Of a stretch of 64,000 bases of DNA, positions 2,858 through 38,875 are shown in pieces. The notes under the pieces were generated by a model. The model was not told where the DNA came from. It saw only the letters and a program-made list of their open reading frames with translations, and ran no database searches. The translations under genes were made by a program, and so were the position numbers. The stretch's first letter is position 1. Each line of letters opens with the position of its first letter. This DNA is from Escherichia coli (GTDB lineage: Bacteria; Pseudomonadota; Gammaproteobacteria; Enterobacterales; Enterobacteriaceae), in the NCBI RefSeq assembly GCF_017348835.2, contig NZ_CP071375.1; one strand, 5' to 3'.

Positions 2858-4060
2858 TCAGGACGACTTCGCTGCAATCAAATCCTGCGCACAAGCCCAT
2901 GCACTCGACCACGCCCACTGGAAGTTATAGCCCCCCAGCCAGCCGGTGACGTCCATCACTTCGCCGATGAAGTACAGCCCAGGCACTTTGCGCGCTTCCA
3001 TCGTCCGTGAAGAGAGTTCGTTGGTGTCCACGCCGCCGAGCGTCACTTCGGCAGTGCGATAGCCTTCAGTGCCGTTGGGTTGTACGCGCCAGTCGGTCAA
3101 TGTGCTAATCAGTGCCTGTTGGTCACGCACGTTGAGCTGTTTTAGCGAAACATCCGGGATTTGCCCGAGTTGCTGTAAGCGTTCAACCAACCGCTTCGGT
3201 AGATGAACCGCCAGTGTGTTTTTCAGGCTCTGATTCGGATGTGCGTTACGCTGCTCATTCAGGAAGGTTTCGAGGTCCACATCCGGTAGCAGATTGATAC
3301 TGACAAATTCACCCGGTTGCCAGTAGCTGGAAATCTGCAACACCGCCGGTCCAGATAAGCCGCGGTGGGTGAAGAGTAAGTTCTCTCGGAAAACGGTGCC
3401 GTTTTCAGCGGTAATCACGGAAAGCACCGCCACGCCCGCCAGCACCTGTAACTCTTCGAGCAACGGTTTATGCAGAGTGAATGGCACCAGACCCGCGCGG
3501 GTCGGCAGCACGTTGAGACCAAATTGTTCGGCAATCTTATAACCAAACGGCGACGCGCCCAGCCCCGGCATTGACAGCCCACCGGTCGCGATGACCAGCT
3601 TTTCGCAACCGACAGTCATGCCGTTCAGTTCAAGCGTGAAGCCTGTATCATCCTTCTCCACGCTCAGCACTTCGCTACGCAATCTGAAGGTCACATTGCC
3701 CTTCTCGCACTCATCCACCAGCATGTCGACAATCTGCTGCGCGGAGTCATCGCAGAAGAGTTGTCCTAACGTTTTCTCGTGCCAGGCGATGCCGTGTTTA
3801 TTGACCAGATCAATGAAATCCCACTGGGTAAAACGCGCAAGTGCAGACTTACAAAAATGCGGATTCTGGCTCAGATAAGCGCCCGGTTCGACATAAAGGT
3901 TGGTAAAGTTGCAGCGCCCACCGCCAGACATGAGGATTTTGCGCCCTGGTTTTTTACCATTATCGATCAGCAGAACCCGGCGTCCTGCCTGACCTGCCAG
4001 CGCAGAACAGAACATACCCGCCGCACCAGCGCCTATAATAATGGCATCAAACCTTTCCAC
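2858..4060 (-). CDS. yhiN: FAD-binding flavoprotein YhiN (HI0933-like family)
   Basis: 400-aa ORF starting MERFDAIIIGAGAAGMFC (Rossmann GxGxxG); synteny upstream of pitA. Confidence 0.85.
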   Translation of the reverse strand: MERFDAIIIGAGAAGMFCSALAGQAGRRVLLIDNGKKPGRKILMSGGGRCNFTNLYVEPGAYLSQNPHFCKSALARFTQWDFIDLVNKHGIAWHEKTLGQLFCDDSAQQIVDMLVDECEKGNVTFRLRSEVLSVEKDDTGFTLELNGMTVGCEKLVIATGGLSMPGLGASPFGYKIAEQFGLNVLPTRAGLVPFTLHKPLLEELQVLAGVAVLSVITAENGTVFRENLLFTHRGLSGPAVLQISSYWQPGEFVSINLLPDVDLETFLNEQRNAHPNQSLKNTLAVHLPKRLVERLQQLGQIPDVSLKQLNVRDQQALISTLTDWRVQPNGTEGYRTAEVTLGGVDTNELSSRTMEARKVPGLYFIGEVMDVTGWLGGYNFQWAWSSAWACAQDLIAAKSS

Positions 4061-5850: not shown

Positions 5851-5957
5851 TTTGTTCATGCCGGATGCGGCGTGAACGCCTTATCCGGCCTACAAAAACA
5901 TGCAAATTCAATAGATTGCAGAGATTATGTAGGCCTGATAAGCGTAGCGCATCAGGC
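5851..5957. repeat. REP/BIME palindromic units between pitA and uspB
   Basis: gccggatgcggcgtgaacgccttatccggcctac and gtaggcctgataagcgtagcgcatcaggc, typical E. coli REP sequences. Confidence 0.7.
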
Positions 5958-12949: not shown

Positions 12950-14302
12950 ATGACTAAACACTATGATTACATCGCCATCGGCGGCGGCAGCGGCGGTATC
13001 GCCTCCATCAACCGCGCGGCTATGTACGGCCAGAAATGCGCGCTGATTGAAGCCAAAGAGCTGGGCGGCACCTGCGTGAATGTTGGCTGCGTGCCGAAAA
13101 AAGTGATGTGGCACGCGGCGCAAATCCGTGAAGCGATCCATATGTACGGCCCGGATTATGGTTTTGATACCACTATCAATAAATTCAACTGGGAAACGTT
13201 GATCGCCAGCCGTACCGCCTATATCGACCGTATTCATACTTCCTATGAAAACGTGCTCGGTAAAAATAACGTTGATGTAATCAAAGGCTTTGCCCGCTTC
13301 GTTGATGCCAAAACGCTGGAGGTAAACGGCGAAACCATCACGGCCGATCATATTCTGATCGCCACAGGCGGTCGCCCGAGCCACCCGGATATTCCGGGCG
13401 TGGAATACGGTATTGATTCCGATGGTTTCTTTGCCCTTCCTGCTTTGCCAGAGCGCGTGGCGGTTGTTGGTGCGGGTTACATCGCCGTTGAACTGGCGGG
13501 CGTGATTAACGGCCTCGGCGCGAAAACGCATCTGTTTGTGCGTAAACATGCGCCGCTGCGCAGCTTCGACCCGATGATCTCTGAAACGCTGGTCGAAGTG
13601 ATGAACGCCGAAGGCCCGCAGTTGCACACCAACGCCATCCCGAAAGCGGTAGTGAAAAATGCCGATGGTAGCCTGACGCTGGAGCTGGAAGATGGTCGCG
13701 GTGAAACGGTGGATTGCCTGATTTGGGCGATTGGTCGCGAGCCTGCCAATGACAACATCAACCTCGAAGCCGCTGGCGTTAAAACCAACGAAAAAGGCTA
13801 TATCGTCGTCGATAAATATCAAAACACCAACGTTGAAGGTATTTACGCAGTGGGTGATAACACGGGTGCAGTGGAACTGACACCGGTAGCAGTTGCAGCG
13901 GGTCGCCGTCTCTCTGAACGCCTGTTTAATAACAAGCCGGATGAGCATCTGGATTACAGCAACATTCCGACCGTGGTCTTCAGCCATCCGCCGATTGGTA
14001 CTGTTGGTTTAACGGAACCGCAGGCGCGCGAGCAGTACGGCGACGATCAGGTGAAAGTGTATAAATCCTCTTTCACCGCGATGTATACCGCCGTCACCAC
14101 TCACCGCCAGCCGTGCCGCATGAAGCTGGTATGCGTTGGACCGGAAGAGAAGATTGTCGGTATTCACGGCATTGGCTTTGGTATGGACGAAATGTTGCAG
14201 GGCTTCGCGGTGGCGCTGAAGATGGGTGCAACCAAAAAAGACTTCGACAATACCGTCGCCATTCACCCAACGGCGGCAGAAGAGTTCGTGACAATGCGTT
14301 AA
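12950..14302 (+). CDS. gor: glutathione reductase
   Basis: 450-aa [30 protein letters not shown]...[13 protein letters not shown] (redox-active disulfide motif). Confidence 0.95.
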
Positions 14303-14309
14303 ATGTTAA

Positions 14310-14339
14310 AGGGCTAAGAGTAGTGTGCTCTTAGCCCTT
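14310..14339. terminator. bidirectional terminator between gor and dinQ
   Basis: gggctaagag...ctcttagccc palindrome immediately after the gor stop. Confidence 0.6.
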
Positions 14340-14355
14340 AATTACGTTTCCGCTA

Positions 14356-14439
14356 TCAGTTCAGAAGCTGAAGCAGAAAGCGGATCAGTTCCAGCAGCGC
14401 AATTAACGCCCCAAGAACGATGATTGCTTTATCAATCAC
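14356..14439 (-). CDS. dinQ: DinQ type I toxin peptide (27 aa, GTG start)
   Basis: Minus-strand translation gtg att gat aaa gca atc atc gtt ctt ggg gcg tta att gcg ctg ctg gaa ctg atc cgc ttt ctg ctt cag ctt ctg aac tga gives (M)IDKAIIVLGALIALLELIRFLLQLLN, matching recalled DinQ. Confidence 0.8.
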   Translation of the reverse strand: MIDKAIIVLGALIALLELIRFLLQLLN

Positions 14440-14632
14440 CCGTTTTCTCCATGCGATGGAGTGAGAATGCATCCGCTTACTCATCCACTGCCTGTCACGG
14501 CGCATGTCTCATTGTTAGATAAGAACTCTCTCACTCCGGCCAGAGCATCAGTTAACGGCACCACCCGTACTTCTGACCAGGACTTTGAAAGCGTTTATGC
14601 GCATTACCAGAGTGAAAATGCCTCAGAGCTAA

Positions 14633-14648
14633 CTGGATAATCATACAG
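14633..14648. promoter_or_regulatory. LexA box (CTG-N10-CAG) in the dinQ promoter
   Basis: ctggataatcatacag matches the SOS box consensus CTGT-N8-ACAG closely; located upstream of dinQ on its strand. Confidence 0.65.
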
Positions 14649-14677
14649 TACATTCAGGTTATAAAACCAGCATGTCC

Positions 14678-15773
14678 TGTGTAAGTTCACAGAGATATTG
14701 CAATTGCCTCCGGATAAGTAAGGGGAGATTGCACTATGCAAATGCAGCATCTGATGGTTGGCTATCCTAAGTACTACCAAACGGCCGATTATGCGTTGAG
14801 GCTTTCAGTGATGGCTGATATAGCAACAATGAGAATGAAGGCTCTGCACTTCTGGGATAAACACGGTATTTCTGCAGCTTCTGAAGCCTTTGGCGTGTCC
14901 TGCCGCACGCTTTACTGGTGGCGTCAGTTACTGAACAAGGAAGGACCTGAGGGGCTAATCCCGCACAGTAAGGCACCTCTGGTGCGACGAAAAAAACACT
15001 GGCATCCCGATGTGCTGAAAGAGATTCGACGCCTCAGGACAGAGCTGCCGAACCTCGGTAAAGAGCAGATTTTTGTTCGCCTGAAGCCCTGGTGCGAACA
15101 GCGCTATCTGGCCTGTCCGAGTGTTTCCACCATCGGCAGAATGATCGCTGCCGCACATGATAAAATGCGGATGATACCTGTGCGTCTGGGATCGCGGGGG
15201 AAGGCACTGCTTGTCAAAAAGCGGTCTGCCAAACCCCGCAGGCCAAAGCACTACCGCCCGGTAAAGACAGGTGAGCTCATTGGGATGGACGCCATTGAGC
15301 TCAGAATGGGCGAACTGCGTCGCTATGTCATCACCATGATCGACGAATGCAGCAATTACGCGCTGGCGCTGGCTGTGCCGTCACTCAACAGTGATATCGT
15401 CAATCACTTCTTCAGCCGCGCAGCCCGGTTGTTCCCGGTCGGTATCAGCCAGATAATCACAGATAACGGAAAAGAGTTCCTGGGAAACTTCGACAAAACG
15501 CTGCAGGAAGCCGCTATCAAACACCTCTGGACCTATCCCTACACGCCAAAAATGAACGCTATCTGTGAACGTTTTAACCGGACGTTAAGAGAGCAGTTTA
15601 TTGAATTTAATGAGATTTTACTCTTTGAAGATCTGGCGCTATTTAACCAGAAGCTGGCGGAATATCTGGTGCTGTATAACAGCAAAAGACCCCACAAGGC
15701 GCTCGCACTAATGACGCCCGTGGAATATATTTTAAAAGAGAATAAAAATTGCAATATGTGGTGGACCCATACA
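14678..15773 (+). mobile_element. insertion sequence, single-ORF DDE (rve) transposase, IS481-family-like, about 1.1 kb
   Basis: Imperfect ~28-bp terminal inverted repeats (left tgtgtaagttcacagagatattgcaatt; right reverse complement tgtatgggtccaccacatattgcaatt) flanked by a 5-bp direct repeat tgtcc (14673-14677 and 15774-15778). Boundaries are uncertain by a few bp. Confidence 0.6.
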
Positions 15774-15818
15774 TGTCCTTGCAATAGTTTCAGTATGGTA
15801 TTAGCATTGATGCGTTAG
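14736..15818 (+). CDS. DDE-type transposase (integrase core domain; N-terminal HTH)
   Basis: 360-aa ORF with HTH (GVSCRTLYWWRQ) and catalytic residues consistent with D (GMDAIE), D (ITDNGKEF) and E (ICERFNRTL) about 36 aa later; the ORF reads 45 nt past the inferred right end of the element. Confidence 0.7.
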   Translation: MQMQHLMVGYPKYYQTADYALRLSVMADIATMRMKALHFWDKHGISAASEAFGVSCRTLYWWRQLLNKEGPEGLIPHSKAPLVRRKKHWHPDVLKEIRRLRTELPNLGKEQIFVRLKPWCEQRYLACPSVSTIGRMIAAAHDKMRMIPVRLGSRGKALLVKKRSAKPRRPKHYRPVKTGELIGMDAIELRMGELRRYVITMIDECSNYALALAVPSLNSDIVNHFFSRAARLFPVGISQIITDNGKEFLGNFDKTLQEAAIKHLWTYPYTPKMNAICERFNRTLREQFIEFNEILLFEDLALFNQKLAEYLVLYNSKRPHKALALMTPVEYILKENKNCNMWWTHTCPCNSFSMVLALMR

Positions 15819-15895
15819 ATGATGGCATTCTCACTCCAGCCAGAGCCACCAACTCTGGGCTGCAAAGTAAAAAACCGACGCAAAGTCGGTTTTTT
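15812..15895 (+). ncRNA. agrA: agrA-like small RNA (repeat copy with intrinsic terminator)
   Basis: Shares the gttagat...ctcactccagccagagccaccaactc...aaaaaccgacgcaaagtcggttttttt core with the downstream copy; candidate -35 ttgcaa (15779-15784) and -10 tagcat (15802-15807) with 17-bp spacer. Confidence 0.6.
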
Positions 15896-16042
15896 TACAT
15901 CCGGATTCGGACAAGGCTTAATATGACGATGACCCAGTGAAAGTATATAAATCGTCACTGCGATATATACCGAAGTGCCCCCTCCGCCAGCTGAAGAAAT
16001 CGCTAATTCTTGCAATGTTAGCCACTGGCTAATAGTATTGAG

Positions 16043-16127
16043 CTGTTAGATAAGAGCTCTCTCACTCCAGCCAGAGCCACCAACTCAGGGCTGGAAAGTA
16101 AAAAACCGACGCAAAGTCGGTTTTTTT
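16043..16127 (+). ncRNA. agrB: agrB-like small RNA (antisense regulator of dinQ)
   Basis: Second tandem copy; -35 ttgcaa (16010-16015), 17-bp spacer, -10 tagtat (16033-16038); about 33 nt (gttagataagagctctctcactccagccagagc) complementary to the dinQ leader copy at about 14510-14542; ends in hairpin + T7. Confidence 0.65.
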
Positions 16128-16161
16128 ACGTCCTGATTCAGACCTCCTTTCAAATGAATAG

Positions 16162-16241
16162 CCAACTCAAAATTCACACCTATTACCTTCCTCTGCACCT
16201 ACGCATTCGTTAAACCATATATGTTTTTGACTTATCCGCTT
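16162..16241 (+). promoter_or_regulatory. ars promoter/ArsR operator remnant (retains -35 TTGACT), downstream part replaced
   Basis: ccaactcaaaattcacacctattaccttcctctgcacctacgcattcgttaaaccatatatgtttttgacttatccgctt closely matches the K-12 Pars region as I recall it; similarity ends after ccgctt. Confidence 0.55.
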
Positions 16242-16242
16242 T

Positions 16243-16292
16243 GGTTTGTAACGCTGGCTGCGCTGGCGCTACGTCTCTCTTTCACTTTGTAA
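16243..16292 (+). pseudogene. arsB: arsB 3'-terminal remnant (last ~16 codons, ...FVTLAALALRLSFTL*)
   Basis: In-frame reading of ggtttgtaacgctggctgcgctggcgctacgtctctctttcactttgtaa ends in a stop 12 nt before the arsC ATG, the expected arsB-arsC arrangement; no arsR or arsB body precedes it. Confidence 0.5.
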
Positions 16293-16304
16293 TGAGATAC
16301 TGAT

Positions 16305-16730
16305 ATGAGCAACATTACCATTTATCACAACCCAGCCTGCGGCACATCGCGTAATACGCTGGAGATGATCCGCAACAGCGGTACAGAACCGACCATTATC
16401 CATTATCTGGAAACACCACCAACGCGCGATGAACTGGTAAAACTCATTGCCGATATGGGGATTACCGTACGCGCGCTGCTGCGTAAAAACGTCGAGCCGT
16501 ATGAGGAACTGGGCCTTGCGGAAGATAAATTTACTGACGAGCGGTTAATCGACTTTATGCTTCAGCACCCGATTCTGATTAACCGTCCGATTGTGGTGAC
16601 GCCGCTGGGAACTCGCCTATGCCGCCCCTCGGAAGTGGTGCTGGAAATTCTGCCAGATGCGCAAAAAGGCGCGTTCTCCAAGGAAGATGGCGAGAAAGTG
16701 GTTGATGAAGCGGGTAAGCGGTTGAAATAA
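16305..16730 (+). CDS. arsC: arsenate reductase (glutaredoxin-coupled ArsC)
   Basis: 141-aa ORF MSNITIYHNPACGTSRNTLEMIRNSG... with catalytic Cys12 context (HNPACGTSRN). Confidence 0.95.
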   Translation: MSNITIYHNPACGTSRNTLEMIRNSGTEPTIIHYLETPPTRDELVKLIADMGITVRALLRKNVEPYEELGLAEDKFTDERLIDFMLQHPILINRPIVVTPLGTRLCRPSEVVLEILPDAQKGAFSKEDGEKVVDEAGKRLK

Positions 16731-17356: not shown

Positions 17357-18472
17357 ATGTCAATTGACTTTACCCCAGGTGTGATAAATACATATCACGG
17401 CGATATTTATAACCGCACAACAGATACCGACAATGTTAAAACACCAGACACACCGATGTGGCCTTGTGATAATCGGGAAGAACAACAACCCATTAATTCC
17501 ACATTCTCTGGAGAAGGATACAACCCTGAACAATATGATTTAGCGCGGCAACACCTCCCACAAATTTATGCGTGCCGCACGAACACCAAATATACAGATG
17601 CAGACTACTCAAAAGTTGTGGCTCAACTTGTAAGTCTTATTACTAACATTGAATCGATAAGTTCGACACCACTTACGCGGCAGGCACAGGAAATACTTAA
17701 TCAAATTAATAACATTAGATACGAAAAGAACAAAAGTGCTGAATGTCGAATCATTGTTGTCGCTAATCCTAAACCCGACAAGGCAATCATAACTAAAATT
17801 AGCGTAGAAGAGGGAATACCAGTAAGATTCAGTGTCCAAACCATGTTTTCAGATACTAATTTTATTGCTGAACAACGAGCTGACTTACCGACTAATATAA
17901 AAGATATTCAAATCCTGTATCAAAAAATGACGAAGTTATATATTGAACACAGTGAAAATAAAAACAGGATGAAAGTCTTTGCCGGAACCAACTTTATTGA
18001 TTTCAATATGACAGGACAGAACCTGTCCGGGTTCGTTCTAACTTTGTCAAGGTTTTATTTCGAAGATCTACTTAATATAAATTTCACTGACGCAAATTTA
18101 GGTGACACTATTTTTTCACATAAAGAACACCCTACCCCCAAATTATATAAAGACGAACAATATCTTGACAAACAAATCGAAGGTTTATTTTCAACATTAT
18201 TAACCATTAATGACAACTTTTTACGAGCAAAAGCGGAAATTGCTTCGACAATAATTAAATTCTTAGAGGCCAGGATAACCAATCTTTCATACAATGACAT
18301 ATTAAAATATCAGCAAGAATTCCAAAAACAATGTTATAAGCAAGTTAAAGCCTTTACGACACTCTCCCGATACAATAAAATTCAAACATGGGCAGAAATG
18401 TCTGAATATCAATTCGAAGTATTTCAATACGAGACGCTTAACCCAAAAAAATGTCACGTACGCCTTATTTAA
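17357..18472 (+). CDS. AT-rich hypothetical protein with a pentapeptide-repeat tract (intact yhiS-like gene)
   Basis: 371-aa ORF; residues [46 protein letters not shown] place F/L/M at every fifth position for about 9-10 repeats, usually preceded by N/D (A[DN]LXX pattern). Position between arsC and slp matches yhiS. Confidence 0.6.
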
Positions 18473-32783: not shown

Positions 32784-33121
32784 TCAGGACATAAGCAACT
32801 GAAATTGATGGCTGGCATGACGAGGGATGCAGATGCTGATTTCATTACCCCCGGTGATTACTAAAGGAGAGGCTAAAACGACTTTATTCCCCTGGTATGT
32901 GTATCCACCAGTAGAACCCTTCGTTGCCCGAATGCTGGCAGGAACTGTTGGCAGAACGGCAACATTTTTTTTGTCGTTGACCTCACCATGTCGATCACTA
33001 TGCCTGTATCCCACCTTACTGGCTGACAACCCCACTATGCCGCTGGTCTGTAAATCCCTCATATCTCTCCTCGCGCGCAATTTAAAGAACCGTTATTTCT
33101 CAAGAATTTTCAGGGACTAAA

Positions 33122-38508: not shown

Positions 38509-38753
38509 GATTATCCCTTATATTTCATACTGCGATTATTTCAATTTCAGTATACTAATGAAATGATGCCAGACTGTTTCTTAGCGCAAAAACTGCCAGA
38601 TTTGGTAGGACCAAAATTTATCCACAAAGTAGTTTTGCATAACAGTTAATTGATAATAAGTAAATGCAACACGAATATATTTTCGCACAGCGTATAGCTT
38701 ATGTTTATAAAAAAATGGCTGATCTTATTTCCAGTAAAAGTTATATTTAACTT

Positions 38754-38859
38754 ACTGAGAGCACAAAGTTTCCCGTGCCAACAGGGAGTGTTATAACGGT
38801 TTATTAGTCTGGAGACGGCAGACTATCCTCTTCCCGGTCCCCTATGCCGGGTTTTTTTT
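38754..38859 (+). ncRNA. gadY: GadY small RNA (overlaps gadX 3' UTR, opposite strand)
   Basis: actgagagcacaaagtttcccgtgccaacagggagtg... ending in cccggtcccctatgccggg + T8 matches recalled gadY; 5' end approximate. Confidence 0.6.
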
Positions 38860-38875
38860 ATGTCTGAGTAAAATT

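Follow-up and report, generated by a model that had tools for sequence, protein, structure and literature searches.

In the 64,000-nucleotide stretch of Escherichia coli DNA analysed here, hereafter the window, an insertion sequence (IS) lies between the toxin gene dinQ and the small-RNA gene agrA, and the reading frame of its transposase runs past the inferred right end of the element into the agrA promoter. The first-pass annotation of this locus had seen two ways to account for the overrun: either the true transposase stop was lost, leaving a locally created C-terminus on a possibly inactive element, or the element is longer than inferred. How, then, does a transposase gene come to end in the promoter of its neighbour?

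Boundaries of the element and the end of its reading frame

Positions 14300-16300 of the window match E. coli PE164 (a pig isolate, NZ_CP114128.1) at 100%, and the PGAP annotation of that genome carries a transposase coding sequence identical to 14736-15818. The ends of the element were placed with the help of an IS-free allele in E. coli JME65 (L001), which aligns to 14678 and resumes at 15772; the eight shared junction bases resolve into a 5-bp TGTCC duplication and an element spanning 14678-15773. Copies elsewhere are 100% identical over exactly this interval, and their flanks diverge directly after ...CCCATACA. The features that bear on the overrun are the following.

14678-15773, + strand: IS481-family insertion sequence of 1,096 bp (TGTGTAAG...CCCATACA), from empty-site comparison, 100% full-length matches and Pfam/NCBIfam
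14673-14677, no strand assigned: left copy of the 5-bp target-site duplication TGTCC, from empty-site comparison and sequence
15774-15778, no strand assigned: right copy of the 5-bp target-site duplication TGTCC, encoding the first flank residues of the tail
14678-14708, + strand: terminal inverted repeat at the left end (TGTGTAAG at the tip, ATATTGCAATT as inner motif), from sequence
15743-15773, + strand: right terminal inverted repeat (AATTGCAATAT...GGACCCATACA), which also codes for ...KNCNMWWTHT
14736-15818, + strand: transposase open reading frame (ORF), 360 aa, of which the element encodes 346 and the flank 14
15774-15818, + strand: flank-encoded tail CPCNSFSMVLALMR and TAG stop (15816-15818, at the agrA start)
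15779-15807, + strand: agrA core promoter, with -35 TTGCAA at 15779-15784, a 17-nt spacer and -10 TAGCAT at 15802-15807
15815-15898, + strand: agrA small RNA, Rfam RF02891 (the AgrB model), 100.3 bits, with a terminator hairpin at 15869-15895

Imperfect terminal repeats, TGT...ACA tips, the length of 1,096 bp and a short direct duplication are all traits of the IS481 family, for which target duplications in ISfinder range from 4 to 15 bp. The family model NF033577 (transpos_IS481) scores 221.4 bits, just below its cut-off of 224, and is by far the best family, with IS3 at 98 bits. The transposase is encoded by one long ORF, with no programmed frameshift, and combines an N-terminal helix-turn-helix (HTH) with an rve DDE core; Pfam matches in the 360-aa product are rve (5e-11), rve_3 (3.5e-14), HTH_32 and HTH_28, and the catalytic core (rve/rve_3) ends at about residue 331.

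At the right end of the element the codons read TGG TGG ACC CAT ACA, the last of them (Thr, 15771-15773) flush with the element end, and the flank carries the frame on as TGT CCT TGC AAT AGT TTC AGT ATG GTA TTA GCA TTG ATG CGT TAG. Translation over the 15773 boundary gives WWTHT and then CPCNSFSMVLALMR*, and the predicted peptide spanning the element/flank joint of the 14736-15818 ORF is ...MWWTHTCPCNSFSMVLALMR. The end of the ORF is supplied by the flank past 15773, as the first-pass annotation supposed, its figure of about 15 codons being the 14 counted here plus the stop; the overlap that it described with the agrA -35/-10 is likewise borne out, both hexamers lying inside the tail. Its proposal that the element is longer than inferred, so that the stop at 15816-15818 would be internal, is refuted: although the eight-base junction overlap (CATGTCCT) lets the boundary shift by a few bases, the IS-free allele has ...CGTCCTTGCAATAGTTTCAG... 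uninterrupted, 72 different right flanks follow ...CCCATACA in other copies and diverge directly after the position equivalent to 15773, and from 15779 onward the sequence is the conserved agrA promoter and RNA, found in K-12-type genomes too.

Other copies and relatives of the element

Because the chance of 14 extra sense codons is about one half once a frame is open ((61/64)^14 = ~0.5), an overrun of this length is unremarkable. The non-random feature is the absence of an in-element stop in all copies, not the 14-codon run. The element is present in 1,419 of 5,426 complete E. coli genomes, at 1,927 places in all; 146 records reach at least 99% identity, and a single genome carries as many as 38 places. 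Only 7 of the 5,426 have the dinQ-agrA insertion. A scan of metagenome, viral and genome collections with the right-end 27-mer yielded 165 loci and about 72 distinct right flanks, one locus coming from the genome contigs and the rest of the data from the metagenome and viral scans. No in-element stop was found among these 165 loci and 72 distinct right flanks, nor in relatives at 43-80% protein identity, ISKpn28 included. Since no copy has a stop of its own, the transposase gene always ends in neighbouring DNA.

What follows the element end differs with the flank. A second copy in PE164, beside hokA, ends in ...WWTHT-VC*, and the copy in E. coli E2348/69, whose neighbours are a second dinQ-like toxin and an AgrB-like RNA, ends in ...WWTHT-AV*; other tails read EH* or SPCLSARKRLT*, and fusions reach 614 aa. 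Protein clusters with at least 79% identity to the query are 348-614 aa long, collinear as far as ...NMWWTHT and unrelated thereafter, some of them being fused to Pfam domains of neighbour genes. Relatives at 43-56% protein identity (for example in Acidithiobacillus caldus) retain a C-terminal C-x-x-W-W-T-H-T, after which 19 of the 27 distant-relative proteins examined have two residues only, or x-x-Cys. The first-pass annotation was right that the C-terminus in the window is locally created; it had named the same C-terminus inside other copies as the observation that would speak against this, and the tails of those copies are different ones. As a side observation, protein P0010 (K. pneumoniae, 408 aa) has the ...WWTHT of one ISKpn28 copy running in frame into the interior of a second copy (QEFLGNFDK...), which indicates an IS-into-IS or recombinant arrangement.

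The other half of that annotation's first alternative, a true stop lost by mutation from a copy or lineage that is now decaying and inactive, fares badly. PGAP gives one and the same 1,096 bp different names from copy to copy (an intact IS481 family transposase, an integrase core domain-containing protein or a pseudogene 'missing C-terminus'), and the latter two labels on several copies, together with a 93%-identical lineage on ColV-type plasmids that is truly frameshifted, could be taken to favour decay. Such decay is nonetheless very improbable for the element in the window: its 1,096 bp, with 346 stop-free codons, are 100% identical in many genomes and at many different sites, which implies recent transposition, in-element stops are absent from its relatives down to 43% identity, and a fresh insertion into mgrB is on record for ISKpn28, which is built in the same way (PMC6101004). 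The overrun of the frame is itself ordinary, that of an intact, recently mobile IS with an ORF open by design. The 93%-identical lineage (L170, L002 and about 1,100 records at 90-95%) has frameshifts or internal stops and no clean duplication, and is found on large plasmids, those of ColV type among them, as well as at the chromosomal galF-yegH position; it gives the impression of an old cohort in decay, separate from the 100%-identical cohort that is active.

Insertion sites and the promoters beside them

The right flanks share a register. Directly after the 5-bp duplication, at +6 to +8, TTG stands in 28 of 54 non-redundant flanks against a background of 1.7% taken from this window (p ~2e-35), and in 17 of these 28 TTG flanks a TAnnnT lies 16-18 nt after the hexamer, against 3.1% of TTG sites in general (p ~3e-19); flank redundancy was cut by a Hamming-distance filter only, and not all of the flanks are independent, since homologous hok/sok promoters account for many of the E. 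coli targets. The transposase gene is always co-oriented with the promoter-like target, and the left flanks hold no signal comparable to the TTG/TAnnnT of the right flanks. Perfect 5-bp duplications are found at 27 of 49 other full copies, and clean insertions with such a duplication have TTG in 10 of 12 non-redundant targets, in the form N5-TTGnnn-17-TAnnnT; 15 of the 49 show 4-5 mismatches between the duplication copies. About half of the non-redundant flanks are without TTG and, because most of these are also without a matching 5-bp duplication, they look rearranged. Individual targets, including those of distant relatives, read as follows.

E2348/69 target: TTGAAT-17-TATAAT
PE164 hokA target: TTGATT-17-TAACCT
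Further target examples: TTGAAA-17-TAAATT and TTGACT-17-TATCGT
Distant relative, site L171: -35 TTGAAC, -10 TAATCT
Distant relative, site L172: -35 TTGACG, -10 TATAAT
Distant relative, site L173: -35 TTGACG, -10 TACCCT
Distant relative, site L175: -35 TTGATA, -10 TATGAT
Distant relative, site L177/L178: -35 TTGACA, -10 TATATT
Distant relative, site L174: -35 TGGACT, -10 CAGACT
Distant relative, site L176: -35 TGGCGA, -10 TATAAT

Five of the seven distant-relative sites have N5-TTG and two N5-TGG, with TAnnnT at 16-18 nt in six and CAGACT in one. They precede a thioredoxin gene, xseB, a radical-SAM gene and a response-regulator gene, and the 5-bp duplication was verified at two of them. The promoter-abutting pattern spans E. 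coli to Acidithiobacillus.

The same register bears on the length of the tail. A -35 of the form TTGAnn is read as N1N2N3 N4N5T TGA and gives a 2-residue tail, the commonest length (the mode, in 13 of 54 flanks). TTGCnn is read as x-x-Cys and lets the frame run on past the -35; the agrA -35 is TTGCAA, so that codon 3 is TGC (Cys) and the tail is one of 14 residues beginning CPC. A stop made by the target arises with TTGAnn only (TGA after two codons), as in most distant relatives, whereas the stop in the window is a chance TAG 14 codons on.

The target in the window is the dinQ/agrAB locus. The gene order is gorA (12950-14302), dinQ (minus strand), IS, agrA, agrB, arsC, with the agrA and agrB small RNAs downstream of gor and dinQ and on the opposite strand to dinQ, in agreement with the published layout of dinQ/agrAB (PMC3567139). 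Besides the agrA features given above, the locus comprises the following.

14356-14439, - strand: dinQ toxin coding sequence, 27 aa, from PGAP, with a LexA operator CTGGATAATCATACAG at 14633-14648
16010-16038, + strand: agrB promoter, paralogous, TTGCAA-17-TAGTAT, of the same architecture as that of agrA
16046-16129, + strand: agrB small RNA, Rfam RF02891, 108.1 bits

Both agrA and agrB have consensus-like -10/-35 sequences and mapped starts, and agrB is the main DinQ antitoxin (PMC3567139); a consensus promoter scan of 14300-16300 misses the two promoters, which score 8/12 where 9 is required. Positioned between the divergent promoters of dinQ and agrA, the IS leaves the agrA and agrB core promoters intact. 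What it does to dinQ can be read in two ways. The agrA -35, TTGCAA, is palindromic and in the IS-free allele lies 16 nt from an opposite-strand TAACCT; it might be shared by the two divergent promoters. With the IS in place, TACACA from its left tip occupies the position of TTGCAA relative to TAACCT (dinQ promoter region 14633-14664). On one reading, the dinQ -35 would be the palindromic TTGCAA, with a 16-nt spacer to TAACCT, and the IS would part it from its -10; on the other, the dinQ -10 would be the TATGAT inside the LexA operator, and the dinQ promoter would be intact, 8 bp from the IS.

Type I toxin loci recur among the sites. An Rfam Sok, STnc100 or AgrB-like RNA lies directly to the right of the element at 6 of 15 loci tested, and a Hok- or DinQ-type toxin ORF on the opposite strand lies just to its left in 22 of 65 contexts. 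The layout of toxin (-), IS (+) and antitoxin small-RNA promoter is common to the window, PE164 hokA (L168, PE164 176009-180104), E2348/69 (L167) and an ISKpn28 copy next to hok on an E. coli plasmid (L169, pJtgc-02-p2). At the hok loci, the IS parts the toxin coding sequence from its promoter and leader and leaves the antitoxin promoter whole.

Several further observations concern these neighbourhoods. In E2348/69, the AgrB-like RNA (Rfam, 53.6 bits) adjoins a 51-aa DinQ-like ORF between ybbP and mnmH. In the window, agrB is separated from arsC (16305-16730) by a gap of about 175 bp (16130-16305), and this strain lacks arsR and arsB, the genes that come after agrB in JME65 and K-12-type genomes. 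Downstream of arsC, an AT-rich stretch holds a 371-aa ORF (17357-18472) that PGAP calls a frameshifted hypothetical protein in PE164. Other Rfam matches above the gathering score in the window are GadY (38751-38864), ES205 (32901-32972), ES036 (5896-5936) and a shuA/chuA 5'-UTR thermoregulator (23197-23228, minus strand), the last implying a haem-uptake chu locus.

Accounts of the targeting, known systems and significance

We consider it highly probable that the open-ended ORF and the promoter-abutting insertion are the normal design of an ISKpn28-type clade of IS481 elements and not damage. In such a design, the last ~13 codons of the transposase are written in the right inverted repeat, the final codon ACA being the last three bases of the element with no stop, and translation would end in whatever DNA adjoins on the right. 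Insertion would put the 5-bp duplication against the -35 of a sigma-70-type promoter with the transposase gene co-oriented, and a -35 of the form TTGAnn would yield a defined product of 346 + 2 residues. In the window, where the target was the agrA promoter, the ribosome would pass the spacer and the -10 to reach the TAG at the agrA start; the frame would thus end in the agrA promoter because this element group lands 5 bp upstream of promoters.

Judging from the frame, the tail is probably translated and harmless. Because the catalytic domains end at about residue 331 and the last ~13 codons are constrained by the repeat, it is most likely irrelevant to activity. A functional tail that tunes the transposase, with 2-aa TTGA copies as active sources and copies with 14-aa tails or long fusions attenuated, appears unlikely. 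The 2-aa mode, the length of most distant relatives (347-348 aa) and the TAA or TAG in the left tip, which would give a similarly short 3-aa tail at a junction of right end, five bases and left end (IRR-N5-IRL), would all fit such tuning; the short-tail mode, however, follows automatically from the TTGA/TTGC preference, with no need for selection on the protein, and the catalytic domains end before the tail begins.

Selection could also act on the sites themselves: insertion would be broad, or would occur at any TTG, and only where a promoter was left whole and a type I toxin silenced would the insertion persist. Many sites are indeed toxin-antitoxin loci, where separating toxin from promoter is harmless or helpful, and ISKpn28 inserts inside mgrB under colistin selection (PMC6101004). 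We nevertheless rate survival as an improbable source of the promoter-like flanks. It leaves unexplained the exact register, in which the last base of the duplication adjoins the hexamer, only one orientation is used and a 17-nt spacer leads to TAnnnT, and it leaves equally unexplained the same register at unrelated genes in distant bacteria.

If promoters are the normal targets of the clade, the question becomes what is read there. The landmark would be the whole promoter and not TTG alone, because the -10 at the correct spacing is enriched too. The most economical reading is that the target is recognised via promoter-bound RNA polymerase or via a DNA distortion upstream of the -35; the alternative is that the transposase reads the target sequence directly. 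Inverted-repeat mimicry, in which the target resembles the element end, is known for IS30 and IS911. It was rejected here: the inner TTGCAA-like motif lies ~20 nt from the tip and the target TTG 5 nt from the joint, and the distant relatives have another inner motif, TTTGGCAC, with the same kind of target.

The frame may also close without any target. At an IRR-N5-IRL junction, in a circle or a tandem, it would run NNN NNT GTG TAA and end in the left tip; the triplet at positions 5-7 of that tip is TAA here and TAA or TAG in all relatives examined. No circular intermediates are documented for the IS481 family in the review literature checked, no -35/-10 pair across the IRR-N5-IRL junction was convincing by eye, and no IRR-N(0-12)-IRL junction was found in 178 loci, the sole match, L091, being an 11-nt ...GGACCCATACA remnant beside a full copy. 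This lone right tip (3874-3884 of metagenome contig OGSB01000833.1) immediately precedes the ACTCC duplication that flanks a full ISKpn28-like copy at a hok-type locus, and may be what an earlier copy left behind or the trace of a deletion within a tandem pair.

Taken further, the pattern allows a tentative proposal to which we give somewhat less than even weight: this IS481 clade, from Enterobacteriaceae to Acidithiobacillus, may consist of promoter-seeking transposons that use a sigma-70 landmark, inserting 5 bp upstream of the -35 in one orientation, sparing the core promoter and using TTGA as a stop. The landmark would most plausibly be RNA polymerase holoenzyme on the promoter or a DNA bend just upstream of the -35.

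The closest known element is ISKpn28, an IS481-family member from Klebsiella pneumoniae listed under that name in ISfinder and NCBI, for which the inner motif ATATTGCAATT has been reported (PMC6101004). The two elements share this motif and the last 30 nt, which are identical; ISKpn28 has the left tip TGTGTAAGTTCACA, a length of ~1.1 kb and a 5-bp duplication (TCTCC). Its ORF is likewise open-ended (357 aa, tail SPCLAASKRLS), and its insertion point, beside hok, is likewise 5 bp ahead of a Sok-type -35. Identity between the two is 75.4% in DNA and 78-80% in protein. By ISfinder convention, isoforms share roughly more than 95% of protein or more than 90% of DNA sequence. At ~75% DNA and ~79% protein identity, the element in the window is therefore a separate IS and not an isoform of ISKpn28; no name for it was found in the searched literature.

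A transposase gene that borrows its stop has a precedent in another family. IS870 of Agrobacterium vitis belongs to the IS630 family. According to the title of Fournier, Paulus and Otten (1993, J Bacteriol 175:3151; title in PMC6471742), its ORF is without a stop of its own and its preferred target makes one. On the strength of that title, IS870 resembles the window element in having no in-frame stop inside the element and differs from it in that the IS870 target CTAG gives TAG and is required for the stop, whereas the target in the window clade is a -35, which makes a stop (TGA) only with TTGAnn and is not required to. A target-supplied transposase stop is thus a known arrangement; the window element differs in its target, a sigma-70 promoter at a fixed register, and in a stop that arises with TTGA hexamers only.

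Closer in family, IS481 and IS1002 of Bordetella resemble the window element in their single-ORF DDE transposase, TGT-type termini, short duplication and marked target specificity. Stibitz is said to have found in 1998 that they duplicate 6 bp at NCTAGN, against 5 bp beside a -35 hexamer here. As regards location, Pedersen and Gerdes reportedly described IS150 and IS186 at chromosomal hok loci of E. coli K-12 in 1999; like the window element these sit beside type I toxin genes and part them from regulatory regions, but they belong to other IS families and have no reported -35 register. Yeast Ty3, at Pol III start sites, and Tn7, at attTn7, also insert at a fixed distance from a landmark and spare the neighbouring gene, a likeness that can be drawn as a functional analogy only: their machinery is unrelated to that of the window element, and whereas the Ty3 tether is a transcription factor, a tether for the window element is only inferred. 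In the searched literature, neither -35-abutting insertion nor the open ORF is described for the ISKpn28 group; ISfinder, TnPedia and most subscription journals lay outside that search, and a prior description there is possible.

What exceeds the routine at this locus is a conserved, base-precise, oriented preference for positions just upstream of the -35, which seems undescribed in the searched literature. For annotation, the present calls are inconsistent, ranging from intact genes through 'missing C-terminus' pseudogenes to chimeras of up to 614 aa, and treating the ORF as open by design, ending in ...WWTHT plus a flank tail, would fix them. The predicted local effects are that IS DNA replaces upstream promoter elements, that transposase transcripts enter the small RNA and that toxin genes lose their 5' regions. 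Promoter targeting would explain the build-up of ISKpn28-type elements both in intergenic regions and next to hok/sok and dinQ/agr modules. If the proposal is true, an IS that reads promoters at single-base register would provide a simple model in which to study the reading of a transcription landmark by a DDE transposase; the strong constitutive promoters of antitoxin small RNAs (Sok, AgrA-like, STnc100) would be preferred landing pads in E. coli, and type I toxin genes would be repeatedly uncoupled from their promoters, in a bacterial counterpart of Ty3-type targeting.
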